Below, piece after piece: positions 6,521-64,000 of a DNA stretch of 64,000 nucleotides. A program made the position numbers and the translations under genes. The DNA comes from Bacillota bacterium. Its GTDB lineage: Bacteria > Bacillota > Clostridia > Acetivibrionales > DTU013. The number at the start of each line of letters is the position of its first letter. Positions within the stretch are counted from its first letter, which is position 1. Location: assembly GCA_023439545.1 (NCBI GenBank), contig JAEXNT010000011.1, positions 139,659 to 203,658 of the forward strand, read 5' to 3'. The notes below the pieces were generated by a model. It made no database searches and was not told the origin of the DNA. It saw nothing but the letters and a program-made list of their open reading frames with translations.

Positions 6521-6535
6521 GTTATTACCCCCATA

Positions 6536-7189
6536 CTATTCCAAGAATTTAGAAAGCCTGTCCTTCATTTCCCTCATAGCATTTCTGGTCTTTTCAGCAA
6601 GGTTTTTCAACCCCGGGAACTTGTTTTCCAGCTTTTTTTCTACATCGAGTATGAAATCGGTCGTCCTGATCAATTCGGCAGGTTCGTCAACCGAGGAAAC
6701 AGCCACAGCAGAGATGTCGATGGTTTCACTTTTTCCGAGAAGCCCGCTCAGGCGTCCCAATGGATTTTTATAACTTTTGCTGACGCTTACGACCAGCTTT
6801 TTATAGATGACATAATCATTCAGTTCGGCTGAAACGGAGGTGTTGACCGGCTTAAGCAATTCATTGCGCGCTGCAAGCTTCAGTGCGTACTCTTCGACGT
6901 CGTCGAGCCTGCTTTCCTCTTCACTGTCAAAAAGCCTTCTATATATTTGAGGCTTTTTGATATCTTCAACGCCCGGTTTTCCTTCAAACGGCACATCCGT
7001 GCCTGAAGACCAGGCCAGAGCGCCCGCCTCCGCCGCACTTTCCGCGGCTGACTGTATCGCCGCCTTCTGCTGCAGCAGAAGCCCCATATATGCAATTGAA
7101 GCAATACAGAGTATTATTACCGGTATGATGATCGACGCCTCGACAGTAATACTCCCCTTGTTTTTTGCGCTTTCGACAATGATCCTCAT
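6536..7189 (-). CDS. TadE-like protein
   Basis: KGSITVEASIIIPVIILCIA motif. Start moved to ATG 7189 (GGAG 9 nt upstream); the ORF-track N-terminal extension lacks an RBS. Confidence 0.65.
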   Translation of the reverse strand: MRIIVESAKNKGSITVEASIIIPVIILCIASIAYMGLLLQQKAAIQSAAESAAEAGALAWSSGTDVPFEGKPGVEDIKKPQIYRRLFDSEEESRLDDVEEYALKLAARNELLKPVNTSVSAELNDYVIYKKLVVSVSKSYKNPLGRLSGLLGKSETIDISAVAVSSVDEPAELIRTTDFILDVEKKLENKFPGLKNLAEKTRNAMREMKDRLSKFLE

Positions 7190-7310
7190 TTGCTTAATCT
7201 CCATATATTTGTATATATTTCCATATTTATACATTTCATTGCTATTATACACCATTATTTGGTAAATATGAAGAAAATAATGAAGAAAATTAAAAAATAT
7301 CGCTCCGGTT

Positions 7311-9281: not shown

Positions 9282-9326
9282 AATACCCCCGCAATGAGGC
9301 TATTATATATGACCTTGGGACCGTAT

Positions 9327-48260: not shown

Positions 48261-49439
48261 ATGAAAAGACTGATAATAATGCTTGGTTTCCTGCTGCTTT
48301 TGAATGGATCGCTGATCACCGCCGCAGCGGAACAAGCGCCGATACTCAACAAACCGTCAACAGTAACTGCTGCTCCCGCGGTAAGCAATACAAATAAAAT
48401 CAATTATAAAACTGAGTTAAAAAAGCTGGGATTCTTTAATGACGAGAGCAGGGATTCTGCTCTGAACCTGCGGAACGCCGTGATTCGCTTTCAAAGCAGT
48501 TGCAATATTGCGGTGACCGGCGTGTGGGATAAAAAATGCCTCTCCATGCTTGCAGAGCGGCTGCAGACCGGAGTGGCCGACTGTGAGGATATAGTCGCCG
48601 CGCCTCCTGTTTCTGGAAAATGGATTTCAATAAATAAAACCAAAAGAATATTGACGTTGTATGAGGGGGACAAAGCAGTCCAAAAATATCCCGTAGCGGT
48701 GGGAAACCCGCCTTCGCGCACTCCCGAGGGCAAATATACTATTGTCAGTAAGGTAATAAATCCCTCCTGGGGCGGAGGCGGTTATGCCAAGCCCGTAAAA
48801 GGAGGCGTCCCTGAAAACCCGCTCGGATACAGATGGCTGGGGCTTTCGTACAAGAACGGCTCCACGCTCGGAATACACGGCAACAACAGCCCGTACTCGA
48901 TTGGAAAAAACGTGTCCCACGGCTGTATAAGAATGATAAATTCCGATGTAACCCAGCTTTTTACGATCATACCGCGATCGGCTCCGGTCTGGATCGGCTC
49001 CGAAGCGAAGCTGAAGGAATGGGGAGTCATACAGCCGGAATATGGCAGTAATAAAAAGATCGCTGCCGATTCCTCCGGCAAGGTCTCGTCAACGACCGAC
49101 GGAACCATCAAGGTTACCTATGACGAGGCAGTGCCGACCGCCGTGAAAGCTCAACCAACCAGTAGTTCAGCTATTGAAATTCCGGAGGGTACAACCGGTC
49201 CCGTTACAGGCGGGGGCATCGGTGTCTCAAGTGATGCCGGCGCACCCGGTGACAACGCAGGCAGCCCGGAAACCGGCGCCCCAAACGATACCGGCGCACC
49301 CGGTGACAACACAGGCAGTCCGGAAACCGGCGCCCCAGGCAATGCCGGCGTACCCGGTGACAACGCAGGCAGCCCGGAAACCGGCGCTCCACTAAACGGT
49401 ACGGTACCTTCGACCGGGGGCGCCATAAGCTTTCCTTGA
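48261..49439 (+). CDS. L,D-transpeptidase (YkuD domain) with PG-binding domain and repetitive C-terminal tail
   Basis: Signal peptide, PG_binding_1-like segment, and HGCIRM active-site motif. Confidence 0.88.
   Translation: MKRLIIMLGFLLLLNGSLITAAAEQAPILNKPSTVTAAPAVSNTNKINYKTELKKLGFFNDESRDSALNLRNAVIRFQSSCNIAVTGVWDKKCLSMLAERLQTGVADCEDIVAAPPVSGKWISINKTKRILTLYEGDKAVQKYPVAVGNPPSRTPEGKYTIVSKVINPSWGGGGYAKPVKGGVPENPLGYRWLGLSYKNGSTLGIHGNNSPYSIGKNVSHGCIRMINSDVTQLFTIIPRSAPVWIGSEAKLKEWGVIQPEYGSNKKIAADSSGKVSSTTDGTIKVTYDEAVPTAVKAQPTSSSAIEIPEGTTGPVTGGGIGVSSDAGAPGDNAGSPETGAPNDTGAPGDNTGSPETGAPGNAGVPGDNAGSPETGAPLNGTVPSTGGAISFP
49233..49394 (+). repeat. 54-bp coding tandem repeat, 3 copies
   Basis: ga(t/c)gccggcgcacccggtgacaac... 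units starting at 49233, 49287 and 49341; they encode (D/N)xGAPGDNxGSPETGAP. Confidence 0.9.
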
Positions 49440-51426: not shown

Positions 51427-51532
51427 CGAAACCATTCCTTCTAATTTAGTGTTCCTGTTAGGAAATACTATATACCAAATTGCAATTTTTGTCCAGATTA
51501 ATTTTGTTCGAGGGCTTCCATGTGACAGGCAT

Positions 51533-51564
51533 AAAAAAACCCTGGAAGATCGTTTCTTCCAAGG
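51533..51564 (-). terminator. Intrinsic terminator immediately 3' of the tRNA remnant
   Basis: Minus strand reads ccttggaaga-N5-tcttccaggg followed by UUUUUUU. Confidence 0.8.
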
Positions 51565-51573
51565 CTTTCGTTC

Positions 51574-51622
51574 TGGCTGCGGGAGAAGGATTTGAACCCT
51601 CACAGACTGATCCAGAGTCAGA
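51574..51622 (-). tRNA. Truncated tRNA: 3' portion only (anticodon arm to CCA), anticodon loop CUCUGGA, so CUG (Gln-like)
   Basis: The T arm (gaggg-ttcaaat-ccttc), the acceptor 3' strand tcccgca, the discriminator G and CCA are all present. No D arm or 5' acceptor strand lies upstream. Confidence 0.7.
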
Positions 51623-51713
51623 ATTCTTTCTTATGGTATATTATTACAACTGTGTACAAGCCTTAATTTTACTGGCTTTTGCTTTTATTACTCTTAATTA
51701 TTTTCAGTAAAAA

Positions 51714-51754
51714 TTGTCTACCATTTATCACAGCGGTAGACAACCGGTAGACAA
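51714..51754. repeat. Arm-type repeat set: ttgtctacc (inverted) and two direct cggtagacaa copies 11 bp apart
   Basis: Copies at 51714-51722, 51734-51743 and 51745-51754, about 100 bp inside the element end. Confidence 0.7.
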
Positions 51755-51849
51755 TGTTTGTCCTAAATATCAGGGATCATTATAGGATGAAAATATGAAC
51801 CTTGGCTTAAGATTTCTAAACTGCAGGGTAAAGGCTCTAGATATTCATA

Positions 51850-52347
51850 TTACTTGTAAGCACTAATAATCTTAATTATTTGCTCTTTACTCAATGTATC
51901 ATATCTGCCGTACTTTCTCCATTCGTTTAGCATTGGCAAGTATTTATAAAGCCTATTACTGTGACTATTTATTTCTACATCCTTAAACTCAGAAAACCTT
52001 CCCAAATCCTCTAAATAGAAGCAGGCAAAAATGAAATGTTCTGTTTCTTCATTACCATCAAATCCTTGAAATATTACATTATCTTTATCTATACCGGTTT
52101 TGTCGCTTAACTCGTGATAAGATCCATATAATGATCTATACATTTGTAAAATATCAATAACCTCTTTACATATGTCTATAGGAATCCCATCTGACATAAA
52201 TTCAACCAGAGAATCATACTCAATTTCAAAGCCTTCTGCTAATATTTTTTGGGCATTTTGACATTCTTTTTCTTCCTCAGGATATAACTTTTCAAGTATC
52301 CGATATTGGTTAAATAAAATAAGTCTTTCTTTTTCATTTAATTCCAT
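51850..52347 (-). CDS. YfbU-family protein
   Basis: MELNEKERLILFNQYRIL... parallels E. coli YfbU (MEMTNAQRLILSNQY). ATG 52347 lies 9 nt after GGGAG. Confidence 0.75.
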   Translation of the reverse strand: MELNEKERLILFNQYRILEKLYPEEEKECQNAQKILAEGFEIEYDSLVEFMSDGIPIDICKEVIDILQMYRSLYGSYHELSDKTGIDKDNVIFQGFDGNEETEHFIFACFYLEDLGRFSEFKDVEINSHSNRLYKYLPMLNEWRKYGRYDTLSKEQIIKIISAYK

Positions 52348-52462
52348 ATGTATCATCTCCCTTTATAAACTATATTCTACAAAAGTAAACATAACCCTGC
52401 ATAAATAGATAATTAATTAGCAATTGTGGTTAATTCAGTGAAACCAAAAACTGACATTCAAT

Positions 52463-52477
52463 CTTTCGTCACTCGAC
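52463..52477. promoter_or_regulatory. Conserved element motif copy 3 (ctttcgtcactcgac)
   Basis: Matches the palindromic motif at 57397 and 56125. Lies 116 nt upstream of the YfbU-like gene. Confidence 0.45.
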
Positions 52478-52532
52478 TAGATTATTAATAATACAGATTA
52501 TTTCTTTTGCTTCGTTTTCTAAACTGTTATAA

Positions 52533-52805
52533 TCACCGATTGACTGTATTAGGCAAGCCTAGATTGCTCTCCATTGCAGCCTCGAGAACATTTATTCGGT
52601 TCCGAAGTTTTCCTGCTTCAATATCAGATACATTCCCGTTACCGGCCAGATCGCTTTCCGTGATCTCCCCTGCTATGAGCCGGGTCAAATCACCGAGAGC
52701 CTGCTGATCGTTATCATATACATTAAGGACCTTAACCAACCTGTGACAATTCTTGCCGGCGTTAACGATGCTATATTTATCTGGACTTTTACTTAGTATA
52801 TTCAA
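52533..52805 (-). CDS. Hypothetical protein, 90 aa
   Basis: TTG start 10 nt after GGGAGG. No family recognised. Confidence 0.45.
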   Translation of the reverse strand: MNILSKSPDKYSIVNAGKNCHRLVKVLNVYDNDQQALGDLTRLIAGEITESDLAGNGNVSDIEAGKLRNRINVLEAAMESNLGLPNTVNR

Positions 52806-52864
52806 TTATATTCGCCTCCCTCGCTATGATTTTATTCTACCATAATCAAGAAGAAAGCCCGAAG

Positions 52865-53032
52865 TTAATCGGGCAAAGTTTGTTTATGGGTAAAAGTAAT
52901 ATACTCTCGACTGATGATATGCTTGAAATAATGAGTATTCCCTTTGCTCCCCATATACATATACTGTTCGCGTTCAGCGTCTGTCTTAAAGCATTTTTCA
53001 AACACCGCGTCGGTATTATCCACAAAGTACAT
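52865..53032 (-). CDS. Hypothetical small protein (MYFVDNTDAVFEK...), 55 aa
   Basis: ATG 53032 lies 4 nt after the stop of the upstream small gene, suggesting translational coupling. Confidence 0.45.
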   Translation of the reverse strand: MYFVDNTDAVFEKCFKTDAEREQYMYMGSKGNTHYFKHIISREYITFTHKQTLPD

Positions 53033-53036
53033 TTCA

Positions 53037-53246
53037 TCACTCTTTTGTATTCCTTCCAATGAACAGGATCCAGTTGCCGAACCACCACGAGAGGTAATAC
53101 CTTGTACGTCCGAATGTCTTTATCAGCCATTCCTTGTGCGCTCGCTTTTTCGCTTTCTTCTTGTCTTTTGCCTTTTTAATCTTATTCCTGTTTTTGTAGC
53201 GGTCCGCCGCCATCCACATAAGTTTTTTCGTATTGAGTTTACTCAA
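53037..53246 (-). CDS. Hypothetical small basic protein with hydrophobic Trp-rich C-terminus, 69 aa
   Basis: TTG start 10 nt after GGAGGGG. Lys/Arg-rich N-terminal half. Confidence 0.4.
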   Translation of the reverse strand: MSKLNTKKLMWMAADRYKNRNKIKKAKDKKKAKKRAHKEWLIKTFGRTRYYLSWWFGNWILFIGRNTKE

Positions 53247-53292
53247 TGTTTTTCATCCCCTCCGTATAATTTTATTTTTGCTTTAAAAAAGC

Positions 53293-53844
53293 CTAGCGGA
53301 AGAGGGTATCCAACCCGGACATATCCAGACCCACAATTTTAAATTTAACGCCTATTTGGGGCAATTTTAGCGGCCTATCAGTGCAAATGATTACAATAGG
53401 TCGGACACCGAATACAGGCAGAAAGTCCATTTTATATTTGTCAAAGTCAAACTGATTGCTGAGATGTACCTCGACCAAAACGGGATAAACCACACCTTTA
53501 TTTCGTATATATGTGAGAGCATCCGGCCGGATATGATCGATTGTAAATTCATTATGCCATTCCAGGATCTCATATATCTGTTTCATAGTTGCATACAGTT
53601 CGGCGCGGATAAGATCATGGTGCAGCTGCTGCAGAAGAGATTTACGCTCCAGATAGTAGGCAAAATCATTATTAATCGTACTCCGGGTACGCTTGACAAA
53701 TCCCTGTTCCGTCAATTTCTGCAACCGGCTCCGGCTATTGCGCGTGATAGTCTCTGCAAAATAAAGTCGGTGAATTTGTGAAGAAGTGGCTACGTGGAAT
53801 TCCTCAAGGAAATTTAAAATATTCTGATCTCGCGTTGTTATCAT
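53293..53844 (-). CDS. Replication-relaxation family protein
   Basis: MITTRDQNILNFLEEFHVATSSQIHRLYF is a Replic_Relax-type N-terminal wHTH. ATGA overlap with the ftsK-like stop. Confidence 0.75.
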   Translation of the reverse strand: MITTRDQNILNFLEEFHVATSSQIHRLYFAETITRNSRSRLQKLTEQGFVKRTRSTINNDFAYYLERKSLLQQLHHDLIRAELYATMKQIYEILEWHNEFTIDHIRPDALTYIRNKGVVYPVLVEVHLSNQFDFDKYKMDFLPVFGVRPIVIICTDRPLKLPQIGVKFKIVGLDMSGLDTLFR

Positions 53845-55082
53845 TTCATCACCTTCTTCAAATACGGATTGATACACTTGCCACGCAATACCTTCATTTT
53901 GGCACGTTTTTCAGATTGGATTTCCTCTGTGGTTTTAAAGGCATTATGCTTTATCAAGATCGATCGTACGTCGTCTGGCTCAATATAAAGGCACTGGACT
54001 TCCTTTATTTCACCGTTGTATTTTATCAGACAGCGGCCCTTATTCTTTATCTGCTCTGCTCCGGCGACGTTTAGTATGACTTCACTGTCCACGTCTGTAA
54101 CGACTTTAAAGGCTAGGCGTGTAGGCATGCAACCTTTAGTACTTCCTGAGATAATTTTTATATCAGGTCTTTGCATGGATACAAGATATAATAAGCCCAC
54201 TTTTCTATCCAGAGCGACACGGACGCGGAATTTATCGAGCAATCCTTCGCTATCGGATATCCGGGAAAACTCGTCTATGATAATAACCTTATAGGGCAAT
54301 GCCTTGCTGGGGTAAAACTTATTCCACACGGCTAGATTTTGAACAAAGCGCTTTTTACGTACGCTGGTAAATAGCTTCAGCCTCCTGTCACTTTCCTGCT
54401 CCATTTCGTCAAGCAACTGTCCGAAGTCCTCCGGTTTCTCACCATATGACCGGACCTTTTTGCAGTCTTGGAAAATACCCAGTTCGACACCCTGGAAGTC
54501 AATCAGGTGCAGATCAATATTATGCCTGCTCAAAATCAGTGACAATATGATCGTTCGTAGGAAGGAGGACTTGCCGGACTTTGGTTCCCCGGCTACGATG
54601 GTTTGTATAGCATCGTCGATGTCGAAATAAAACTTGCCTTCATGAGTATATCCAATAAATACCTCTGTGGGATCCTCGCAGTCCTCGAATTCATATTTGT
54701 AATTCGCCCCGAGGTTCATCTGTGTCAGCTTCATTACAAGGTTTTTATTGAATCCATATTCCACCTTGCAGTTCAAAGCCTGCTCTATTTCCTGCTGCCG
54801 CTGCTCAAAATGCTTCTGCGATATCCCTTCGGGCATATGTATAACAAGGGTATCTTTATCATGCTTTATTACGAGCGGTATCTTATCATCACAAGATTTT
54901 ATCCCGCACTTACGGAACAGTGTTTCAAACCTGTTTTCATGGAGCAGAGCCAATTCGATTCCTGTTATCAAGGCCCCTCCCGCAAGCATCGCAAGAGTAG
55001 TTACTCCCGGCATAAGTATTTGACCTATGCCGCCTATACCCATCAGTATAAGCCCGCCGCCTGTCTTTCCATATCTATCCAT
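53841..55082 (-). CDS. FtsK/SpoIIIE-family DNA translocase (membrane anchored)
   Basis: Walker A GEPKSGKSS, Walker B VIIIDEF, N-terminal TM helices. ATG 55082 lies 6 nt after GGAGG. Confidence 0.88.
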   Translation of the reverse strand: MDRYGKTGGGLILMGIGGIGQILMPGVTTLAMLAGGALITGIELALLHENRFETLFRKCGIKSCDDKIPLVIKHDKDTLVIHMPEGISQKHFEQRQQEIEQALNCKVEYGFNKNLVMKLTQMNLGANYKYEFEDCEDPTEVFIGYTHEGKFYFDIDDAIQTIVAGEPKSGKSSFLRTIILSLILSRHNIDLHLIDFQGVELGIFQDCKKVRSYGEKPEDFGQLLDEMEQESDRRLKLFTSVRKKRFVQNLAVWNKFYPSKALPYKVIIIDEFSRISDSEGLLDKFRVRVALDRKVGLLYLVSMQRPDIKIISGSTKGCMPTRLAFKVVTDVDSEVILNVAGAEQIKNKGRCLIKYNGEIKEVQCLYIEPDDVRSILIKHNAFKTTEEIQSEKRAKMKVLRGKCINPYLKKVMK

Positions 55083-55103
55083 CACACACCTCCGTCCGCG
55101 CCC

Positions 55104-55132
55104 CCGCCTGCTCCACCCTGCTCCGCAGGCGG
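55104..55132. promoter_or_regulatory. GC-rich inverted repeat in the ftsK-like 5' leader (candidate oriT or regulatory hairpin)
   Basis: ccgcctgc-N13-gcaggcgg sits inside an ~80-nt GC-rich patch in otherwise AT-rich DNA. Confidence 0.35.
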
Positions 55133-55223
55133 CACTCCGTGGCTCCCATGAACTTGCTTTTTGCAATGTTTAGTAAAATTACCGCTTGGAAGTCTTATAG
55201 ACTTGCATATCCGTAAAGCCGTT

Positions 55224-55259
55224 TGGTATAGGGAATGGTATATGGTTTGGTACTGGTAT
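55224..55259. repeat. Cluster of five TGGT(A/T)(T/C) direct repeats (iteron-like)
   Basis: Copies at 55224, 55236, 55243, 55248 and 55254, read directly. Confidence 0.75.
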
Positions 55260-55351
55260 ATGTATATGGAACATAAAAGAAATGTTGCCTGTACGGTAGA
55301 GAATATCTAAAACCGATTTATTTAATAGATTTGTTGTTGATAAAATAATTT

Positions 55352-55379
55352 AAAAAAAGACCTGGAGATTAATCCAGGT
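55352..55379 (-). terminator. Intrinsic terminator overlapping the XRE gene stop
   Basis: acctgga-N6-tccaggt followed on the minus strand by cUUUUUUU. Confidence 0.75.
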
Positions 55380-55563
55380 AGAATATTTTTTTTACATCTT
55401 TGTTAAGCTTAAAGGCCATTTTTAAAGCCACTTCTAGGCTGGGCTGAATAGAATGCTCATATCGGTTATACTGCCTAAAATCTATTTCTAGAAAGCTTGC
55501 GAACTCTTTTTGATTCATCATATATTCTTTCATCCGGATCTCTTTGAGCCGATTCTGGACCAT
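55369..55563 (-). CDS. XRE-family HTH protein
   Basis: LKEIRMKEYMMNQKEFASFLEIDFRQYNRYE is an HTH_3 pattern. Confidence 0.8.
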   Translation of the reverse strand: MVQNRLKEIRMKEYMMNQKEFASFLEIDFRQYNRYEHSIQPSLEVALKMAFKLNKDVKKIFYLD

Positions 55564-55622
55564 AATAATCACCAAACTATATGTTCTCTATTTCCCGTAT
55601 AATACCTTTTTCTATCCGGAAA

Positions 55623-55934
55623 CTATTTTATCCCCAAAGCTCGTCTATGTTGTTCCTTTTCATGCCATTTTAGAAACTGCTCTTTTGGGATACATGCCCT
55701 TCTGCCCCATTTTAATTTGGTAAATTCCGGGTTGTTTATAATTTTGTAAGCTCTCGTTATTCCGCAATATAATAAGGATTTTATATCTTCGACAGTAATC
55801 ATACTGGGAAGCATGTCTTCTGTTATTTTCTTTTTATCATTTGGATTTTGTTTGCATTGTAAAGCGTTTAGGCTGCTTAAATGTTCATTTAACATTCTGA
55901 TCTCCGCCAATAACTGTTCAAGTATTCCTTCCAT
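55623..55934 (-). CDS. DNA-binding protein with C-terminal excisionase/MerR-type HTH
   Basis: ITVEDIKSLLYCGITRAYKIINNPEF...IPKEQFLKW. Strong RBS. Confidence 0.6.
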   Translation of the reverse strand: MEGILEQLLAEIRMLNEHLSSLNALQCKQNPNDKKKITEDMLPSMITVEDIKSLLYCGITRAYKIINNPEFTKLKWGRRACIPKEQFLKWHEKEQHRRALGIK

Positions 55935-56124
55935 AAAGCACCTCTTCCTTTCAATAATATTATATACAATTCCTTAACGGGGGTATTTTACCATACATAT
56001 TAAGCATAAAAAAGGAAGACGGTTTTTCGTCTCCCTTTAAGGCTAGATTCAATTGTATATTATATCCTGTCTTTTGAAAGTCTATCAAGAGCCTTATCAA
56101 TACCGAATTTGGTATCGCTATAGC

Positions 56125-56143
56125 TTTTGTCGCTCAACGAAAG
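56125..56143. promoter_or_regulatory. Conserved element motif copy 2 (ttttgtcgctcaacgaaag)
   Basis: Imperfect palindrome flanked by TGGTAT copies at 56110 and 56148. Confidence 0.45.
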
Positions 56144-56273
56144 ATCATGGTATAGGTTATCCATTCTTTTCTCAGTAAGCAGATCCAAAATAGCATTTAA
56201 AGCACTGGTTGCTTACATAATTTCCTCAATCCCCCTTTAAATTGTACAGATAAGCTTCGCCGGCCGTTCTCTT

Positions 56274-56453
56274 TTAGTCGATCAATTTGTATACCGGGAC
56301 ACACATTACCTTTGCTATTGCTTTTAGAGTTTTCATGGAAGGCTTACTTTTCCCGGATTCAAGTTCACACATATGACTCGGTGAAATGCCAGCAGAGTGA
56401 GCAATATCCTTTTGAGAAATGCGGCTTGCAAGCCTATGACTTTTGAGCTTCGT
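56274..56453 (-). CDS. XRE-family HTH protein
   Basis: LKSHRLASRISQKDIAHSAGISPSHMCELESGKSKPS. TTG 56453 lies 8 nt after AAGGGGG. Confidence 0.75.
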   Translation of the reverse strand, partial: TKLKSHRLASRISQKDIAHSAGISPSHMCELESGKSKPSMKTLKAIAKVMCVPVYKLID

Positions 56454-56760
56454 CAAATACTTTGCCCCCTTTGCAATCGGTATCATTTTTAATGACGTCT
56501 AAAAGAAACCTTATACCATCAGAAAATGCTTTTTTATAACACACCTTCATAGCAATTATCTCTTTGAGGTTATATTCATGATCGATTCTATCGCGTAAAG
56601 AACCGCATGTATGGCCTTTCGGATCACTCGCTTCAACTTCCTTCAAAAGGATTTCAATTTCTTCAAGTTCCTTAACATATTCGGGATTTCTATAAGACTG
56701 ACCATAAATTTCTTCGTCAAGCCATTCTTCGCATTCCTCTAATAAAGCATCTAATAGCAT
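56434..56760 (-). CDS. Hypothetical acidic protein, 108 aa
   Basis: AGGAGGTG lies 5 nt before the ATG. No family recognised. Confidence 0.55.
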   Translation of the reverse strand: MLLDALLEECEEWLDEEIYGQSYRNPEYVKELEEIEILLKEVEASDPKGHTCGSLRDRIDHEYNLKEIIAMKVCYKKAFSDGIRFLLDVIKNDTDCKGGKVFDEAQKS

Positions 56761-56849
56761 ATAAACACCTCCTAAGCATACTCCGCTTTACTTCAGGCAG
56801 TATAAATATTTACTGTCAGCTTTATCATGAGTAAATATAGAATCATGGT

Positions 56850-57005
56850 CTATTCATTTGGCATCATTCTTACAAGCTTTAAATTACGCTCCTGGATAGC
56901 TTGCTGAATAAGCTCCCTTTCCTCTTCAACACCTGATGTATTTAACTTTGAGTAAAGGATCTGCAGCTCAGACTCAATCTTTTCAATTTCGAATTGTTCA
57001 AGCAA
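56850..57005 (-). CDS. Candidate small helical protein, 51 aa
   Basis: TTG start 7 nt after AGGAGG. Not in the ORF track because it is under 60 aa. Heptad-like sequence. Confidence 0.35.
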   Translation of the reverse strand: MLEQFEIEKIESELQILYSKLNTSGVEEERELIQQAIQERNLKLVRMMPNE

Positions 57006-57138
57006 ATAGATAGCCTCCTTCCTATACCCTTGAAGGCAGGCCGCAGCAATGCTATAATATTCATAAGGCAGCCTTTATCAAGGTTGTTTTGTGTGCCGGT
57101 ATCCTCTAAGCTTTGGACGGTGAAGAGGTTGCCGGCTT

Positions 57139-57312
57139 TCATTTGACTGATTTTGTACATGATTCTATAAACTCCTTTAGCTGCTCATCTGTAATTCTCC
57201 AATGCTTCCCTATCTTCACCCCTTCTAATTTTCCTGCTTTTAAATACTTTCTTAAGGTTATTACAGGAATTTTTATTTTTTCCGATAATTCTTCAAGAGT
57301 ATAGAATTCCAA
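57139..57312 (-). CDS. Excisionase-family (HTH_17) DNA-binding protein
   Basis: YTLEELSEKIKIPVITLRKYLKAGKLEGVKIGKHWRI. TTG 57312 lies 8 nt after GGAGG. Confidence 0.8.
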   Translation of the reverse strand: MEFYTLEELSEKIKIPVITLRKYLKAGKLEGVKIGKHWRITDEQLKEFIESCTKSVK

Positions 57313-57333
57313 ATCATTCACCTCCTACCAATT

Positions 57334-57362
57334 ATTGTATAATGCATTTTCTGATATGTCAA
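57334..57362 (-). promoter_or_regulatory. Sigma-A promoter for the xis-like gene
   Basis: On the minus strand: TTGACA, 17 nt spacer, TACAAT. Confidence 0.6.
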
Positions 57363-57396
57363 TATCTATCAATAATTTTAGTTACCTGTCATTACC

Positions 57397-57414
57397 TTTC
57401 GTCGCTCGACGAAA
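57397..57414. promoter_or_regulatory. Conserved element motif copy 1: palindrome tttcgtc-gctc-gacgaaa
   Basis: Perfect 7-bp arms, about 35 bp upstream of the -35 element. Confidence 0.5.
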
Positions 57415-57503
57415 TTTTACTTATTTGCCACGCTGGATTACTTTTATTTATATCATGAAAAAAGCACTCGGTTAAGAGTGCTTAATGAGTATGTTCTTAT
57501 ATA

Positions 57504-57785
57504 CTAATCTTCATTTAGGTATTTATCTCTAAGAGTCCCAAGTAGTATATTTCCTCTTGCATTATTGTCATTTCCATCATAAACTATAAAATCATATCCA
57601 GGATATTGTTTTTGTAATTTTTCTTTTAAGTAAGAAACATTAGCAGAATTTTTAGTCATTTTAATCGCTTTGTAGTTTTCTGACAAGACTACTTCGCTTC
57701 TGACGTTTTTTCCGTCTTTAATAAAGTGAACCTTAACGCCTTCTACCTTGAAAATTGTTTTTTCAATATATCCAATTTTTGGCAT
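57504..57785 (-). CDS. Hypothetical protein, 93 aa
   Basis: ATG 57785 lies 6 nt after AAGGGGTG. No family recognised. Confidence 0.5.
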   Translation of the reverse strand: MPKIGYIEKTIFKVEGVKVHFIKDGKNVRSEVVLSENYKAIKMTKNSANVSYLKEKLQKQYPGYDFIVYDGNDNNARGNILLGTLRDKYLNED

Positions 57786-58384
57786 ACAAAGCACCCCTTT
57801 TTTATTGCATTATATACCATAATATAGCAATAAGCAATTAATAATCGACATTTGATGTTAGTTGCAGTAAAACTAAGCGCTATCCAATTACCGCATTAAG
57901 TCTGTAAAAATTTATTATAAGCATTCTGTGTAATATTTTGTGTAGGGTTGAAACAAATAGTACAGACAGTAAAAGACCTTCCAGCGTTCAACCTGAAAGG
58001 TCTTTTCAAAAATCATATCGCTAAACGATTCTTTGAAATGAAAGAAGCTATTATATTTATATTTGTTTCCCCCAAAAAGTACGTGAGATTCGTACTCCTA
58101 ATCATGGGTTAGAAAATACATTTCAACAGAAAATCTTTGCCTGGTTTCATTCACTACCCGGCCCCAGGTTCTTGATGCACTTTAATGATCCATCGAGAGA
58201 TCAAAGATATTCCCCTACTTTTAGTTTATCATGTTAAAAATTCCATAGAACCTTCAGGTAATTGAATCTCTGAAGGTACACCCTTTTTATCATCTGGGAG
58301 TAAATTATTTCAATAAAATTTTGTTGAACAATTATGTAAAATATTATAAAATGGCAATATCTTTATAGCAAAGGAGACATCAAT

Positions 58385-58942
58385 ATGAATCTTAGTCAGA
58401 TGAAAGAAATTGAAGACTTAAAAGCTCAATTAAGTGCTTCAAGAGATGAATATAGTAAAATATACCAACCTAAAAAGCAAAAGGCTTATAATGAAGTAGT
58501 AAATGGGTTTAAGACATATTTTAAAAATCAAGGTTTCGAAATTCAGGAGACCTCATCATTTGTATATGCAATTTATCGTGATATTAAATTTTCATTAAGC
58601 TTACCGGGAACTGATACAAGCTTTGTTGGCGCTGCTTCAGTATTCAATTTATCTGAGGAGCATAACAAAATAGATAAGCATTCGATAATGATTATTCAAA
58701 AAGGACATAGAACCGGAATACATATTACTTCATCTATATCTCCAAAAACTGAAGATGAAAAATATAAACAAGAAGTTGAAAGTCTAAAAAATAGCATTGA
58801 AGATTCCAAAAAAAACATAGAAGCTATGAAAGATGATGTACTGGTTTTTGGATTAAGGATAGATAATAATAGATCAGGCAGAGAATATGAACAATTTAAT
58901 TCTATGAATGACCTTATTGAACATTTATTTGAATCAAAATAA
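58385..58942 (+). CDS. Hypothetical coiled-coil protein, 185 aa; the only plus-strand gene in the element
   Basis: AAAGGAG RBS. Very AT-rich. An upstream hairpin with T run lies at about 58250-58292. Confidence 0.6.
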   Translation: MNLSQMKEIEDLKAQLSASRDEYSKIYQPKKQKAYNEVVNGFKTYFKNQGFEIQETSSFVYAIYRDIKFSLSLPGTDTSFVGAASVFNLSEEHNKIDKHSIMIIQKGHRTGIHITSSISPKTEDEKYKQEVESLKNSIEDSKKNIEAMKDDVLVFGLRIDNNRSGREYEQFNSMNDLIEHLFESK

Positions 58943-59419
58943 TTACTACCTATAGTTTGACTGGTCAAATCCAGCAAACGCTTATATATCAACAATTTGA
59001 TCGTATTTTGCAATGTAGTGTTTTCGGTGCAAAAGTATTCTGTTTTGTCTCGTTTTCATGCAGCTATAGGAGTATATATAATCTGTTCTTATGGTACTTG
59101 GTATCTATATAAGTATTAGTTATAATCAGTAAGTCAGCTCGTTGAATAAAGTCCTTATACCCCGAACCCTACAGATTGTTGGCCTACAGCTGGTATATAC
59201 AGGTCAGCAAATTACGGCATGGTATAGACAAAAAGCAAGACTGCACATAATTAAATTTATGGGTAGTCTGGGAATATGAGGCAAAAGATACATTTCGTGT
59301 AATCCATATCCCTTCATACCCGCTATGCATTGGTATTACAGTGTTTCGGGCTTTGCTCATTTTTTATAGGTGATTGTGCTTTTGATGCGTTTTGCTATAG
59401 GATACTATATATTGTGTTT

Positions 59420-59512
59420 ACCCTGCCCGAGATGCCACCGGAACCGGTTTTTGTCGGTTGCCCAGACCCCCGGGGGGCGGGTCGCCTGGCGCGCGGGAGA
59501 GTTACCTCGCGT
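59420..59512. other. GC-rich structured island in an AT-rich non-coding region
   Basis: Roughly 93 nt of GC-rich sequence with several local stems (aaccg/cggtt, gaccc/gggtc, cgcggg/ctcgcg). No credible ORF. Confidence 0.5.
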
Positions 59513-59640
59513 AAAAATGTAGACCATCTAGGCCTCAATTTTTGATTAGCAATCCTATGAAAAATCCTATTAAAAATAAGAAAATGCCATGAAAGCATTA
59601 ATTATAGGCGCTTTCAAGTAAGTACATATCAAAAAAATTA

Positions 59641-59904
59641 TCATCGTTTAAAATTAGTTTCAATGCAATTAATTCCTTTTCCAGAAATTCTATATCTCTG
59701 CTTCGTTTCCCTGACATATCCGTTTCGAACGAGAATCCCTAGCTTTTTCCTAAACTCTTTTTCAGTCATATCAAAATGCGTACTATTATAAAGTGTCTCA
59801 GCCGAGTACGTCCTGTCATAAAGCTGGTAAAGAGTACGTAAAATATAGCCTTCTGAGCTTAATTGAGTAAAATGCTTAATTGCATATTTGTATTTAGTTT
59901 TCAT
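59641..59904 (-). CDS. Small winged-helix DNA-binding protein, 87 aa
   Basis: LGILVRNGYVRETKQRYRISGKG is a wing-like C-terminus. Its own RBS is preceded by the inverted repeat caacaat-N20-attgttg. Confidence 0.55.
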   Translation of the reverse strand: MKTKYKYAIKHFTQLSSEGYILRTLYQLYDRTYSAETLYNSTHFDMTEKEFRKKLGILVRNGYVRETKQRYRISGKGINCIETNFKR

Positions 59905-59960
59905 ACTATTTTCCTCACAACAATATATAAATACATTTTATAACATTGTTGAGAAAGTAG

Positions 59961-59999
59961 TAAAAATGCACAAGGAAGCTTATAACAAAGCTTCCCTGT
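59961..59999 (-). terminator. Intrinsic terminator closing the ArpU-like-led operon
   Basis: 12-bp stem (59970-59981 / 59988-59999) followed on the minus strand by gcaUUUUU. Confidence 0.75.
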
Positions 60000-60013
60000 A
60001 TTATGAGTTACTT

Positions 60014-60997
60014 TTACCCGAATTCTGCAATAACGTTAGAAAGCCCTCTTACATCCGCATCGGTATAGTCGACAATGCCTCTGAAATAAGTCGTACAGTC
60101 GATGTACAGGCCACATCCACCGCCGCTCCAAACCTCCGTTCCTGGGCCATGTCCAGCTTCAGCAAAAAACTTCACTGTCAACGCGTTTCCATGCCAACCA
60201 TTCGAGTACCAGCCGCCAATAGTTATACCGCTTTCAAGCACGGGATCACTGCCTGGATTGACATTGAACATACCACCGTTGAATGAACCGGAATAAACAC
60301 CGTTTTGGTTTATATACGTCGCGTAACCGCTGTTCCTCCATGCCGCTAAAGAAGCGCCCAGCGGGACATACAACTTCTCGTTGAAGGTTTTAGGCTCAGT
60401 TTTGTCCTTGATCAGACGGTGATCAATCAAAGCAATGCCCCGCCTGTCAACCTGGAAAACTGTCATGAAGCCACCAACGGCTTCACACGCCACAGATTCA
60501 TAAGCTTGCAGGAAAAGTTGTTCTAGCGGCATGGTGTTAATATTTTGTTCGATAAAATGTCCGACCTCGGAAGTCGCCATTCCCTCCACCCGCGCTCCAT
60601 CATACCAGAACATGACAGCAAAATCATCATTCGAATTCATGCTGCAGCACACTGGAGCATTACGGGTGTTGTCATAATAGAATATCGCTAGATTGCATAT
60701 AAATGCATTTGCAGGATCAGCGATGTTATTGCCCTGGCAGAAAGCCTTTACTTTGCTTCTGGCTATCCCCTGAAGAGCTTCAATCGTATCGTTGTCCTGA
60801 TGCGCAAATTCAAAAATTACTGCTGCTCCTACCGCTTCAATGCCTGCCGAAAATATCAAACGGCTATGCACGACATGGAGCTTTTGGCCGTCGTCGCCGA
60901 GTCTGCGAAATTCACCATTGGCACACAATGACCTACGGGAATCGGAGGCCACGAATAGTGGGCCTGTATTTGAATAAATGGAAATACAACAACTCAT
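60014..60997 (-). CDS. Two-domain protein: N-terminal proteasome-beta/HslV-like Ntn-hydrolase fold (Cys in place of Thr1) plus a Gly/Trp-rich C-terminal domain
   Basis: By-eye alignment of CCISIYSNTGPLFVASDSRRS...QKL...SAGIEAVGAAV to [21 protein letters not shown]...RKV...GIAGTAAVAV. Not verified by a profile search. Confidence 0.5.
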   Translation of the reverse strand: MSCCISIYSNTGPLFVASDSRRSLCANGEFRRLGDDGQKLHVVHSRLIFSAGIEAVGAAVIFEFAHQDNDTIEALQGIARSKVKAFCQGNNIADPANAFICNLAIFYYDNTRNAPVCCSMNSNDDFAVMFWYDGARVEGMATSEVGHFIEQNINTMPLEQLFLQAYESVACEAVGGFMTVFQVDRRGIALIDHRLIKDKTEPKTFNEKLYVPLGASLAAWRNSGYATYINQNGVYSGSFNGGMFNVNPGSDPVLESGITIGGWYSNGWHGNALTVKFFAEAGHGPGTEVWSGGGCGLYIDCTTYFRGIVDYTDADVRGLSNVIAEFG

Positions 60998-61104
60998 TAA
61001 ATCATCCCTTTCTTTTTAAAAACATCTTTGCTTAAAAGCCGCACGGATAGCCCTCGCAGGGAATCCATGTTCCTGATAGCGCTGCATCAAGCCATACCTG
61101 ACCA

Positions 61105-61512
61105 TTAATTTAACCCTACACTAAGCATGTCTATGAACTGCGAGAACTTGCCGTCCGGTGCAGGAAGCTTCTCTAATTTTTCGCGCTGCTTGCCTAAGAA
61201 TTCGGCAAATTCTACAATCCAGTCCTGCAACAGACTTACAGGCGCGCTCTGAAAAAACCTTTCATCATAACCATAACCATTGACCAGGCTGTGAAAAGGG
61301 GTTTTTGTTGCTTCAAAATTCCCATTGTGCATCAGTTTACAGACATATTTGTCAACGCCGCCATTATCTCTTATGGTCTCGGGGATTTCCTCAAAGCTAC
61401 TGAGGATAGTGGCTTTATCGGTTTTCTGAATGCGTTCTGCTATATCCCAGTCCATAGAACGATAGCCGGTTGTCAAAAGCTCAGTCAGTTCATCTTTGTC
61501 AAGCGCGTTCAT
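61105..61512 (-). CDS. Hypothetical protein, 135 aa
   Basis: Start moved to ATG 61512 (GGAGG 8 nt upstream). C-terminal DWIVEFAEFL resembles DWFEEFAKML of the 139-aa protein. Confidence 0.55.
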   Translation of the reverse strand: MNALDKDELTELLTTGYRSMDWDIAERIQKTDKATILSSFEEIPETIRDNGGVDKYVCKLMHNGNFEATKTPFHSLVNGYGYDERFFQSAPVSLLQDWIVEFAEFLGKQREKLEKLPAPDGKFSQFIDMLSVGLN

Positions 61513-61535
61513 CTGCTCGGCCTCCTGCATCCTAC

Positions 61536-62969
61536 TTATTCCAACTTATAGCTTATTTCCGTCCAATCATGCTCCGGATCCTGCGCGACGTTGCCCACGG
61601 AAAGCCAGTCCTGATATGTGGGACCCCCGATAATACAGGCAACTCCGTTACGTTTACGGAACATTTCCTCAAGGAATAGATTGCTTTTTACCTGCCAGAA
61701 TCTTTGAGGATTGCAGTAATATGCAAAATGTCCGCCACGTTCGCTTTTATAACCCCCATAGACGATTGTGATTTTGCTTCCTCCTTCAGTTTTTTTGCAG
61801 ACAGCACCATCCTCTACTAGCCTTTCAAGTACGCGTGGACTAAGTCCTTCGATATCAAGCCGCCCAGTGTTCCGACATATTTTTAGCTTTATTCCTGGTG
61901 CCGAAGTCGGCTTCGCTTCTGTCGGTGCCCGCCAATTATCCGCAAATTTCATTATTTCAGCAGTTTGCATATCGGTAAACATGAAGCGCATTTGAAGTTC
62001 AGGAAAACTTGCTCCGAGAGCCTTTTTCCCCGCGGCGAGGGCCGATTCAATGATTTTCTGTCTCTCAAAGGGGTCTTCTACCTTCTTTTGAGGTTCTGTC
62101 TTGGGTGCGGGGACTGTGCCGGGGGTGAAGACCTTCCTGCGGTCTGACTTTTTCACCATGGTCAGCAATCCTACATTCGGACTATAAGTGGCTATAACGG
62201 GTTTTGCAGGATCTATATTCTTCAAGTCAGTTACTACCATAAATTCTCCATGGTCATTCTCTACAGTATCCCTAGCAGACATTGACATGACGCCAGCGCC
62301 GGGATAAGCTCCATCAAAGACAATACTATTTTCCCAAAGTGCGGCTGGTGGGTATGCTTTTATCCAGCATAGAGAATCCTTTTCATTCCCGGCAGTATCC
62401 TTGACCTTGTAGGTTTGGCCGGCATAGTGTTCGCAGTCGCGACTTGTGTACTCCTCACCACACACAGAACATATGCCCCGATTAAAACTGAAACCTATAG
62501 ATGTATCAAATAGCGTCCCGGCCTCGATACCTGCAATAAGGTCATCTGTATTTATACCGTCGATTTCCACGCCGCGTTTAATGTAAGTGTCGCTCAAAAG
62601 AGAAACCGTTTCGCCTTCCTCAGTAGGTTCTCCAAAACATGCATCAAAGGTTCTTCCATAGGGGATAGCAGGTTTCGGACGACCGCCTAAACCAAACAGC
62701 CCTCCCGAATGCCAGGAGTGGTCTATCAGGAAGGATACGCCTTTTCTTGCATCCATAGCGAACACATCAAGCGTCTCTCTCATTAGCTGGACATACCGCT
62801 CGGGGATTATCATATCTCCAGTTAATTTTGATGGGAACACGAATACTTCATCGGCGGTCAGCCTACGTTTCGCAAGCTTATTGATTTTTTCAAGTTGTGC
62901 TGTGGTCGGTACACCGAATTCACCCAATTCAATCATCCTTTCCTTTTGGGCGTTCGCCCAAATCTTCAT
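61536..62969 (-). CDS. Prohead-serine-protease-like protein (HK97/XkdF type) with Cys/His insertion, linker and extra C-terminal domain
   Basis: LIDHS (His), DTSIGF (Ser) and LWENSIVFDGAYPGAGV follow the Peptidase_S78-type order. CSVC...CEH...C cluster. Start uncertain (ATG 62969 or 62936). Confidence 0.6.
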   Translation of the reverse strand: MKIWANAQKERMIELGEFGVPTTAQLEKINKLAKRRLTADEVFVFPSKLTGDMIIPERYVQLMRETLDVFAMDARKGVSFLIDHSWHSGGLFGLGGRPKPAIPYGRTFDACFGEPTEEGETVSLLSDTYIKRGVEIDGINTDDLIAGIEAGTLFDTSIGFSFNRGICSVCGEEYTSRDCEHYAGQTYKVKDTAGNEKDSLCWIKAYPPAALWENSIVFDGAYPGAGVMSMSARDTVENDHGEFMVVTDLKNIDPAKPVIATYSPNVGLLTMVKKSDRRKVFTPGTVPAPKTEPQKKVEDPFERQKIIESALAAGKKALGASFPELQMRFMFTDMQTAEIMKFADNWRAPTEAKPTSAPGIKLKICRNTGRLDIEGLSPRVLERLVEDGAVCKKTEGGSKITIVYGGYKSERGGHFAYYCNPQRFWQVKSNLFLEEMFRKRNGVACIIGGPTYQDWLSVGNVAQDPEHDWTEISYKLE

Positions 62970-62984
62970 TTATTTTGCTTTGCT

Positions 62985-63296
62985 TTACTTTCCCGAGTAT
63001 TCCATATCATGCCACTCACGCAGCCCATGCCTATCAAGTTCGTTGGTAGAGAACATGTCATAGATTGTGCAATTAAGTTGGCCGTTTGGCCATATCCCTG
63101 GATAGTCCTGGTTAAACAGAGTACACAGTGTAGGGTTGGGTGTTACGGAGAACGTCGCTAGATTTGCATAGTACTTTACCCCATTTCCGGCCTCGCCTCG
63201 GGCTATAATACCTTCATTTACGAATTCTTGAAGCTGCGTCTCGCTCAAACCTCCAGTATCCAGCCTGCCGGATCTTTTACATATTCTGAAAATCAT
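62985..63296 (-). CDS. Hypothetical protein, 103 aa, sharing a motif with the C-terminal domain of the 477-aa protein
   Basis: ICKRSGRLDTGGLSETQLQEFVNEGII compared with ICRNTGRLDIEGLSPRVLERLVEDGAV. Confidence 0.6.
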   Translation of the reverse strand: MIFRICKRSGRLDTGGLSETQLQEFVNEGIIARGEAGNGVKYYANLATFSVTPNPTLCTLFNQDYPGIWPNGQLNCTIYDMFSTNELDRHGLREWHDMEYSGK

Positions 63297-63712
63297 AACG
63301 CTTTCTCGCTTTCAGTTAACATTTTTGCAAACTCTTCAAACCAATCACAAAAACTTTCCGTGTCCTTTTCAAAAATTAAAATGAGAATATCATCAGCCGG
63401 CTTGACTAAATCGTTGTCAAATGTCCTTCCCTTGATTAATTCGTCGATGCTTTTGTTGTCTCTATTATCTCTGTAAAACTCTAGAAAGCCCTGAAAAATC
63501 AGTGAAAACGGTACATCATCAAAGTCGCCATAGTTCACCATATCCGTGAAATATCTATGGTTATGGTTGCCTAAGAACATAATTGATAGATCCTCTGGCT
63601 CAATAACACAATTATCCTTGAATTTCCTGATCTCTTCTGGGGTCATAGAAACAGCGTGCGGCAACCGGGCCAGTTTCATCTCTTTGAATTGTTTGTCCAT
63701 CTTATTTCTCAT
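63293..63712 (-). CDS. Hypothetical protein, 139 aa
   Basis: ATGA overlap with the downstream gene. No family recognised. Confidence 0.55.
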   Translation of the reverse strand: MRNKMDKQFKEMKLARLPHAVSMTPEEIRKFKDNCVIEPEDLSIMFLGNHNHRYFTDMVNYGDFDDVPFSLIFQGFLEFYRDNRDNKSIDELIKGRTFDNDLVKPADDILILIFEKDTESFCDWFEEFAKMLTESEKAL

Positions 63713-64000
63713 CCTCTCTCATCCATTCCAACATCGATTTTATCTTTCTGCAGTCTTCTAAATTGATCTGGACTATAGTGATCATTTTTTGTAATGCTCT
63801 ATCGCGGCAACAATTTAAGGCTCGTGGGCTACATTTCAGTTCCTGGGCTATTACTTTCCACGTCTTATAGTGGAAATATTTCTGTTCAATCAGTAAACGC
63901 TCTTGCCGGTGTAATGCTCTGACTCCGATATCGATTTTCATGATTATAGCACTGACCAGCAAAATATCTTGCTGTATTTTTTCAATTTCTTCTGTAATCC
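63702..64000 (-). CDS. Sigma-70 region-4 / ArpU-like transcriptional regulator (5' end outside window)
   Basis: ERLLIEQKYFHYKTWKVIAQELKCSPRALNCCRDRALQKM is a region-4 HTH pattern. The frame stays open to the window edge. Confidence 0.6.
   Translation of the reverse strand, partial: ITEEIEKIQQDILLVSAIIMKIDIGVRALHRQERLLIEQKYFHYKTWKVIAQELKCSPRALNCCRDRALQKMITIVQINLEDCRKIKSMLEWMREDEK

Follow-up and report, generated by a model that had tools for sequence, protein, structure and literature searches.

A discrete mosaic mobile element of 17,745 bp is integrated at the 3' end of a tRNA-Gln(CTG) gene in contig JAEXNT010000011.1 of a Bacillota bacterium. The 64,000-nucleotide stretch of this contig that was analysed is hereafter referred to as the window. 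The element extends from window position 51574 to composite coordinate ~69318, and the window region 51574-64000 constitutes its att-proximal 12.4 kb. The remainder was read from a metagenome contig (L001) that is 100% identical to window positions 53293-64000 and runs 9,712 bp past the window end, yielding a composite of 73.7 kb. The element carries a cut-down phage head-assembly gene, together with an FtsK cassette that is shared with tailed phages; because of these two features, we read it as a phage satellite resembling the phage-inducible chromosomal islands (PICIs) and P4, with the phage-type FtsK cassette as an accessory. We hold this reading with about as much confidence as doubt.

Boundaries, integration site and replicon

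The att-proximal end of the element has the following features.

51574-51621, minus strand: attR, a 48-nt fragment of the 3' end of tRNA-Gln(CTG)
51709-51759, no strand assigned: three copies of TGTCTACC, one direct and two inverted; putative P-arm integrase arm-type sites

The 48 nt of attR match exactly the 3' end of the tRNA-Gln gene of a relative with an empty site (L021), in agreement with the att end recognized here in the preliminary description of this region. No complete tRNA was identified by ARAGORN. The last 13 nt of attR (51574-51586) form one copy of a direct repeat, TCTCCCGCAGCCA (minus strand), and a second copy lies ~150 bp downstream of the integrase gene; the 13-mer occurs twice in the 73.7-kb composite, once at each end of the element. 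All five copies of TGTCTACC in the composite are located no more than ~170 bp inside these two repeats, a distribution that suggests that they are integrase arm-type sites. The element was delimited at 17,745 bp because both the 13-bp repeat and the arm motif are confined to its two ends, and the delimitation by att sites proposed earlier has thus been carried out with exact repeats. The hairpin beside the integrase-side repeat is nearly identical to the terminator that follows the tRNA in three strains (L021-L023; LysA in the same 90%-identity cluster), in which the tRNA-Gln gene is intact and the element absent. On this comparison, attP appears to mimic the tRNA 3' end plus its terminator. 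Three assemblies yielded this same element, which has a GC content of 0.393, versus 0.479 for the remainder of the window. An internal att site, dividing the element into two tandem elements, was sought in the composite and not found. The scan of species-representative genomes returned only seven loci, and neither the two metagenome scans nor the Rfam scan gave any match.

The chromosomal flank differs between the window and L021. In the latter (positions 5364-9300), tRNA-Gln is separated from a gene encoding a TrmB-family regulator by a GerA spore-germination operon and a different terminator, whereas in the window (51480-51573) only another terminator stands between the tRNA fragment and the TrmB gene; strain variation or a deletion may account for the difference. 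Farther out, at 48261-49439, the chromosome encodes a YkuD-type L,D-transpeptidase with a C-terminal tail of degenerate Pro/Gly-rich repeats (GAPGDNAGSPETGAP, ~3 copies).

Beyond position 64000, the element continues for 5.3 kb, in which the ArpU-like gene is completed and followed by a replication module, small regulators and the integrase; the second att repeat comes next. The order is: ArpU-like gene, a 92-aa open reading frame (ORF), a helicase of the AAA_25 family (PF13481, 1e-30) with a winged helix-turn-helix (wHTH) domain, a CHC2 primase-finger protein (6e-9), two small ORFs and a 58-aa helix-turn-helix (HTH) protein; a 265-aa ORF and a 422-aa tyrosine integrase are divergently oriented. 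The 3' end of the AAA_25 gene contains an iteron-like cluster (L001 8847-8960; composite 64753-64866), in which the motif ATAGTC is present nine times in 140 bp, versus 43 times in the 73.7 kb, at 9-bp spacing and with flanking inverted copies. This cluster probably serves as the replication origin of the element. Pfam and PHROGs revealed no terminase, portal, capsid, tail-tube, holin or endolysin between the two att repeats. The full complement of virion and lysis genes past position 64000 that would have refuted the preliminary reading is thus absent from the element, and the earlier view of the region as a discrete hybrid element, rather than the early region of an ordinary prophage, is supported.

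The operon with head- and tail-related genes

The genes most informative about the nature of the element lie in an operon led by the ArpU-like gene.

63702-64000 (continuing to ~64244), minus strand: 3' part of an ArpU/RinA/sigma-r4-like regulator, 177-180 aa in full
63293-63712, minus strand: 139-aa ORF, no family match
62985-63296, minus strand: 103-aa ORF (p103), paralogue of the C-terminal domain of the 477-aa protein
61536-62969, minus strand: 477-aa derivative of a phage head-morphogenesis protein (protease/scaffold slot), by homology and synteny
61105-61530, minus strand: 141-aa ORF, no family match
60014-60997, minus strand: 327-aa two-domain protein, from an AF2 model, Foldseek and its relatives
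59969-60000, minus strand: terminator-like hairpin of 13 pairs, closing the operon

The 477-aa protein belongs to a family of at least 424 proteins and is 61-68% identical, over ~276 N-terminal residues, to phage head genes (prophages L003-L010). The homologue is flanked by a portal-sized gene and a Phage_capsid_4 major capsid gene in five phage or prophage loci, and the tail and tape-measure genes follow downstream. Weaker relatives were found by tblastn in deposited phages, annotated "head maturation protease", and the relative in Flavonifractor phage Cormatin also sits between the portal and major head genes. The N-domain was modelled by AlphaFold with a predicted local distance difference test (pLDDT) score above 85, and comparison of the model with the predicted phage proteins of BFVD gave several fold matches annotated as prohead or capsid-maturation proteases. 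Searches of the PDB by sequence and by fold yielded nothing for this protein, nor did viral scans with the 477-aa, 327-aa and p103 sequences as queries. In the family alignment (hereafter referred to as A1), the window protein keeps the N-domain (residues 15-290), with the invariant residues His84, Ser85 and Ser157 and a Cys/His cluster, and retains a helical segment (303-352). The middle linker of ~100-130 residues is deleted, as it is in the protein of a related element (L007, see below), and the phage C-terminal tail is replaced by a new domain of ~125 aa. This C-terminal domain (61536-61892) shares an ICxxxGRLD motif with p103 and has a homologue only in L007.

The 327-aa protein was modelled with a pLDDT of 85, and its 200 N-terminal residues are predicted to adopt the fold of a proteasome beta-subunit (N-terminal nucleophile hydrolase). 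Foldseek returned 531 matches in the PDB at E ≤ 0.001, the best being a 20S proteasome beta-subunit (E 7e-10, probability 1.0), with TM(target) values of 0.6-0.7. On our reading, Ser2, Asp19 and Lys39 occupy the positions of proteasome Thr1, Asp17 and Lys33, and are putative catalytic residues. The two domains were delineated with 118 relatives identified among 1.84 billion representatives. The ~200-aa domain, for which there is no Pfam model, is always N-terminal, starts at residue 1 and precedes varied C-termini. The C-terminal domain of ~110 aa is 50-60% identical to other proteins, one of which (P0276) carries Prophage_tail, and a ~29-aa motif of this domain recurs near the C-terminal end of the Tal-type tail-tip protein of phage L114, in which the gene order is tape measure, Dit, Tal. 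The relatives of the C-terminal domain thus include phage tail-tip proteins. The 477-aa and 327-aa proteins together contradict the earlier statement that the region contains no virion genes.

The 327-aa and 141-aa ORFs were also considered as capsid or decoration protein homologues; BLASTP ruled this out for both, as did the proteasome fold for the former, and the 141-aa ORF is not homologous to the phage gene occupying the same slot. The 139-aa and 141-aa ORFs display weak similarity to each other (BLASTP E 0.02), with a DW(F/I)xEFAxxL motif, and may be distant paralogues flanking the two p103-type domains.

The operon is partly conserved in L007, an 18.5-kb contig on which a tyrosine integrase with 36% identity, two divergent regulators, a different replication module (DnaD-like and DnaC-like genes) and an ArpU-like gene are followed by a homologue of p103 at the same position (44% identical), a linker-deleted 477-aa homologue (66%) and, farther on, a Tal-like tail protein. 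The ArpU-like proteins of the two elements are homologous (E 2e-10), that of L007 being a DUF722/Sigma70_r4 protein in the same slot, and two genes of the regulator string described below (HTH_17 and p108) have weak matches to L007. The contig has no terminase, portal, capsid gene or FtsK. As L007 keeps the ArpU-p103-head-gene operon and lacks the FtsK cassette, we consider the former to be the conserved core of these elements and the latter to be accessory. Beside the integrase of L007 (~150-198) lies a tRNA 3' fragment (T-arm and acceptor end) with a terminator; judging from this arrangement, L007 is also integrated at a tRNA gene, its other end lying beyond the contig.

The FtsK/Replic_Relax cassette and the regulators

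The att-proximal part of the element is occupied by the following genes.

55369-55575, minus strand: XRE-type HTH protein, 68 aa, first gene of the conserved cassette (HTH_3 4e-7; 73% identical to L012)
53841-55082 (ORF to 55166), minus strand: membrane-anchored FtsK/SpoIIIE-type ATPase, 413 aa as called (PF01580 3e-14; phrog_1358 9e-58)
53293-53844, minus strand: Replic_Relax-family protein, 183 aa from the ATG at 53844 (PF13814 2.5e-9; phrog_9996, phrog_2190)
52533-53246, minus strand: three small ORFs (90, 64 and 69 aa), no Pfam or PHROGs family match
51850-52356, minus strand: YfbU-domain protein, 168 aa (Pfam PF03887 2.7e-41; phrog_6084)

The YfbU, FtsK and Replic_Relax genes and two XRE genes listed in the preliminary description all have Pfam matches, and the FtsK stop and Replic_Relax start share an ATGA overlap, consistent with the translational coupling proposed. 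The FtsK sequence has a hydrophobic N-terminus, a Walker A motif (GEPKSGKSS) and a Walker B motif (VIIIDEF). The Replic_Relax match (ORF 53293-53877; 37.9 bits, for a cutoff of 25.3) covers model positions 1-63 of 191 and is limited to the N-terminal wHTH third of PF13814; a PD...ExH nuclease-like core is possible, on inspection of the protein sequence.

The XRE, FtsK and Replic_Relax proteins and p69 (53037-53246) constitute a block that is 73%, 72%, 64% and 81% identical, respectively, to that of the tailed temperate phage L012, in which the p69 homologue likewise follows Replic_Relax. FtsK and Replic_Relax are 63% and 62% identical to their counterparts in L013. The closest FtsK relatives (45-73% identity) are mostly on contigs of 38-48 kb, and the two contexts read, those of L012 and L013, place the pair between the integrase/repressor region and moron, lysis and tail genes. 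Distant FtsK homologues (~25% identity) are present in 293 deposited phage genomes, 196 of which are Bacillus phages, and several of the 293 annotate a replication-relaxation or replication-initiation gene adjoining FtsK. Homologues of Replic_Relax also adjoin FtsK on ten clostridial plasmids. One of these contexts, on a 37-kb non-phage Clostridium perfringens plasmid (L025, NZ_CP102313.1, 23069-26363), contains a resolvase, two small ORFs, FtsK and the Replic_Relax homologue, next to an IS1595-like element and erm(Q). Given its occurrence in 293 phage genomes (distant homologues of FtsK), in clostridial plasmids (close homologues of the pair) and in this satellite-like island, we consider FtsK/Replic_Relax to be a shared mobile cassette. 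The XRE-FtsK-Replic_Relax-p69 block and YfbU, itself an accessory gene at the att-proximal end, make up the accessory part of the element, and the cassette is one that temperate tailed phages and the element exchange. We do not regard it as the principal means by which the element is transferred. Phage papers guess at a replication or segregation role for the pair (PMC9658697, PMC11526630); our own guess is episome maintenance or segregation, or the exclusion of incoming DNA.

The cassette and the ArpU-like-led operon are separated by regulators and an AT-rich spacer.

59641-59904, minus strand: 87-aa possible wHTH protein (HTH_45 E 0.002, below cutoff)
58385-58942, plus strand: 185-aa coiled-coil-like ORF (PHROGs without assigned function)
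57504-57794, minus strand: 96-aa ORF (phrog_10601 6e-6)
55623-57321, minus strand: regulator string with a 103-aa HTH-like ORF, an XRE gene, a 108-aa ORF (p108), a 51-aa ORF and HTH_17, from Pfam and PHROGs

The region had been described as transcribed almost entirely in one direction. This is true of gene orientation, as the minus strand carries 20 of the 21 credible ORFs found from 51850 to 64000, the exception being the 185-aa ORF in the spacer, but several transcripts are indicated. Terminator-like hairpins follow p327, p96 (57483-57462) and the 68-aa XRE gene (XRE68), with a fourth between the second XRE gene (XRE70; 56274-56486, HTH_3/XRE by Pfam) and the 103-aa ORF (55623-55934), and a strong promoter-like site (11/12) precedes HTH_17 (57362-57334); because of these internal signals, 51850-64000 is not considered to be a single transcript. 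Some of the regulatory labels first applied have also had to be weakened. Only one of the two or three excisionase-type HTH genes passes Pfam (HTH_17, 57139-57321), the 103-aa ORF being HTH-like by PHROGs only; the wHTH label rests on the sub-cutoff HTH_45 match; and the full ArpU-like protein has remote PHROG matches (phrog_36 2e-8, phrog_248 1e-6), weak sigma-70 region-4 matches and, in NCBIfam, only weak sigma-70 matches far below cutoffs. Within the AT-rich spacer (57800-59640, GC 0.31-0.33) lie a GC-rich palindrome (59462-59481) and an imperfect direct repeat of 25 nt, with copies at 59063 and 59394.

Proposed phage parasitism and competing explanations

We favour phage parasitism over conjugation because head- and tail-derived genes are present. 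The element displays several features of satellites: a size in the ~10-18 kb range with att repeats and a terminal integrase, its own replicon and no complete virion or lysis set. The 477-aa truncated head-gene homologue is a candidate gene for interference with capsid assembly or redirection of capsid size. A helper phage or a stress signal would derepress the element, leading to its excision and to replication from the iterons. The ArpU-like protein would then activate the operon of the element and possibly, like P4 Delta, the late genes of the helper as well. The 477-aa protein would take the place of the protease/scaffold protein of the helper in its procapsids and, lacking the linker, would disturb or down-size the capsid, such that a 17.7-kb genome fits. 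The 327-aa protein may modify the hijacked tail tip. The Staphylococcus aureus pathogenicity island (SaPI) protein CpmB and P4 Sid down-size capsids by other means.

The similarities to the SaPI/PICI family are a length of ~15-18 kb, att repeats, an integrase at one end with divergent regulators beside it, a replicon of the primase/helicase type with iterons, a lack of structural and lysis genes, accessory genes opposite the integrase and, by analogy with CpmB, a plausible scaffold-like gene for capsid interference. The differences are the lack of a recognizable TerS, Ppi or Stl homologue, a capsid-directed gene that is a truncated phage head-assembly gene rather than a small dedicated scaffold, and the possession of an ArpU/RinA-like regulator, a tail-tip-related protein and the FtsK/Replic_Relax cassette; the host is a spore-forming Firmicute, and helper dependence is here a prediction from the genes. 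Satellite P4 of Escherichia coli follows a similar logic, with an integrase, a primase-helicase with iterons, its own late activator (Delta), a capsid-size gene (Sid) and no virion genes, but the two are unrelated in sequence, the candidate here is an internal protease/scaffold derivative and Sid a scaffold of the external type, and the ArpU-like protein can only be presumed to act on helper late genes. Capsid-forming PICIs (cf-PICIs) also carry homologues of phage head-morphogenesis genes; they have a full head set (terminase, portal, protease, capsid and connectors), whereas the element has only the derivative of the protease/scaffold slot.

Several observations weigh against a satellite. 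Its excision, induction and packaging are predictions. The 477-aa family has no match to Pfam Peptidase_S78, even at E up to 1, and hhalign of A1 against an S78 protease sequence gave a probability of 4.8%. We therefore named the protein after its slot in head morphogenesis; a "protease" label would be based on gene position, the annotations of others and matches between predicted structures. The model of its new C-terminal domain is of low confidence. No ORF was recognized as a packaging-redirection gene of the TerS, Ppi or Rpp type, although divergent ones are possible, and the sole TerS-like PHROG match is weak (9e-5) and concerns the 58-aa HTH protein in the cro position. No helper phage was recognized, and the prophage next to the element is of another family: the 20 kb read of a 47.9-kb relative of that prophage, head module included, contains no 477-aa homologue. 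Finally, L007 is the only related element found; a word-index search with the 103-aa marker retrieved only the marker itself, and family pattern scans retrieved nothing, L007 being missed too. One further candidate satellite, MT835769 (18.6 kb, "Bacteriophage sp."), proved to be a fragment of a real phage.

The element might instead be a phage-derived mosaic island with no transfer of its own, either a decaying prophage chimera that still integrates and excises or a defence island kept by the host against phages, in which the effectors would be the proteasome-fold protein and the FtsK/nuclease pair, and the head-protein copy would serve as a decoy or sensor. We regard this as unlikely. Its parts come from at least two phage families, the GC content drops in the AT-rich spacer (57-60 kb), no packaging gene was found, and the FtsK ATPase domain has weak PADLOC matches to SspH and mads8. 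Against it, none of the ORFs is disrupted, nor are the integrase, repeats or arm sites, iterons are present in the replication module, and the same operon order is kept in L007 despite 21-66% divergence. PADLOC gave no specific defence family for any other ORF.

An integrative and mobilizable element (IME) is a slightly less probable solution. In such an element, Replic_Relax would be a MOBC-type relaxase acting at an origin of transfer (oriT), FtsK a TcpA-type coupling protein delivering the circle to a co-resident conjugative pore, and the phage-like genes regulatory or defensive cargo. PF13814 is the MOBC relaxase domain and ATPases with PF01580 only are the TcpA proteins of Firmicute integrative and conjugative elements and IMEs (PMC5357655); both matches are above Pfam cutoffs here, the two genes are translationally coupled, the FtsK N-terminus is hydrophobic, and the pair also occurs on non-phage clostridial plasmids, such as that of C. 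perfringens in which it lies beside a resolvase. The streptococcal IMEs with TcpA, or with PF13814/MobC relaxases (class 8), resemble the element in having a tyrosine integrase, an excisionase-type HTH and a PF01580-only ATPase upstream of a nicking-type protein, with no type IV secretion system (T4SS). However, the PF13814 relaxases of the streptococcal IMEs are accompanied by VirD4 and serine integrases and never by TcpA, which is found only with relaxases of the rolling-circle replication type (Coluzzi et al. 2017, PMC5357655), and these IMEs are compact, without phage head- or tail-derived genes or a primase-helicase replicon. Moreover, the closest homologues of the pair are inside tailed temperate phages, the plasmids bearing it were typed as non-mobilizable by MOB-suite (10/10), the Pfam match does not extend beyond the wHTH third of PF13814, no convincing oriT-like inverted repeat stood out beside the pair, and L007 lacks the pair altogether. 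Mobilization would also leave the head-gene derivative and the tail-related protein unexplained. It is possible, but not favoured.

The same pair lies near the integrase, repressor and moron region of Firmicute temperate siphophages (L012 and L013; Bacillus phiCM3, BtCS33, 268TH007 and RBClin15), which, unlike the 17.7-kb element, are complete, with sizes of 38-68 kb and a full complement of terminase, portal, capsid, tail and lysis genes. The region could be the early part of an ordinary prophage, the late genes lying past the window and the lysis and tail genes beyond the integrase belonging to the same phage. Small moron-type genes, endolysin, holin and tail-fibre genes that are 71-93% identical to L012 do lie outside the integrase-side repeat, the holin, endolysin and tail-fibre genes 3.4-9 kb past it, and the gene order across the junction resembles the circular map of L012. 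Between them and the element lie the 13-bp core, the terminator mimic and the arm sites, the pattern expected of two tandem insertions at one tRNA; the two integrases share only 23% identity, and the 13-bp core is missing from L012. As core and arm sites intervene, the neighbour is considered to be a second, L012-like element in tandem at the same tRNA, distinct from the first, and a single prophage including these lysis genes was rejected; we consider an ordinary prophage early region to be very unlikely. The neighbour occupies composite 69319-73712 (L001 1-4394) and L024 1-10386, and was read to ~6 kb past the holin, where two assemblies end, a section that does not include its head genes. 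It carries a CBM96 tail-fibre gene, a holin, a Peptidase_M15 endolysin and HEPN-like and bPH/SHOCT moron genes. In its 47.9-kb relative, the head module is complete and bears no relation to the 477-aa gene: the protease is an ordinary Peptidase_S78 enzyme, and the capsid gene is another one; on these grounds, the neighbour was ruled out as the helper or the donor of the 477-aa gene.

Scarcely credible is the transfer originally suggested, in which FtsK alone would pump double-stranded DNA into a neighbouring cell, like Streptomyces TraB, in the manner of an actinomycete integrative and conjugative element (AICE; e.g. pSAM2): the element does share tRNA integration, a membrane-anchored FtsK-family ATPase, a Rep protein and a lack of T4SS genes with AICEs (none was detected among the ORFs scanned with Pfam, PHROGs and NCBIfam, as first reported), but the NCBIfam plasmid_TraB match is weak (E 7e-5; 21.6 bits, for a cutoff of 800), no Spd, NUDIX/Pif or RepSA-type genes were found, the GerA spore-germination genes of the host's close relative L021 indicate a spore-forming Firmicute rather than a mycelial actinomycete, and the analogy is unsupported because the XRE-FtsK-Replic_Relax-p69 block, a common passenger of tailed phages, is 64-81% identical to that of a tailed temperate phage.

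Returning to the phage satellite, a more specific proposal, which we put forward tentatively and think rather improbable, is that this element and L007 represent an undescribed satellite lineage in spore-forming Firmicutes, which would remodel the capsids of its helpers by means of a linker-deleted copy of their head protein and would bring its own tail-tip-related protein. This member would add the FtsK/Replic_Relax pair, possibly as a second, particle-independent route (mobilization, segregation to daughter cells or spores, or exclusion of rival DNA). If the element is indeed a satellite, it would provide a new way of hijacking capsids, by means of a truncated copy of the helper's own head-assembly protein, and would extend PICI/P4-type parasitism to the little-studied spore-forming Firmicutes. 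The FtsK/Replic_Relax pair is recast as a mobile cassette common to phages, plasmids and satellites, and this compact element would offer a convenient place in which to test it.

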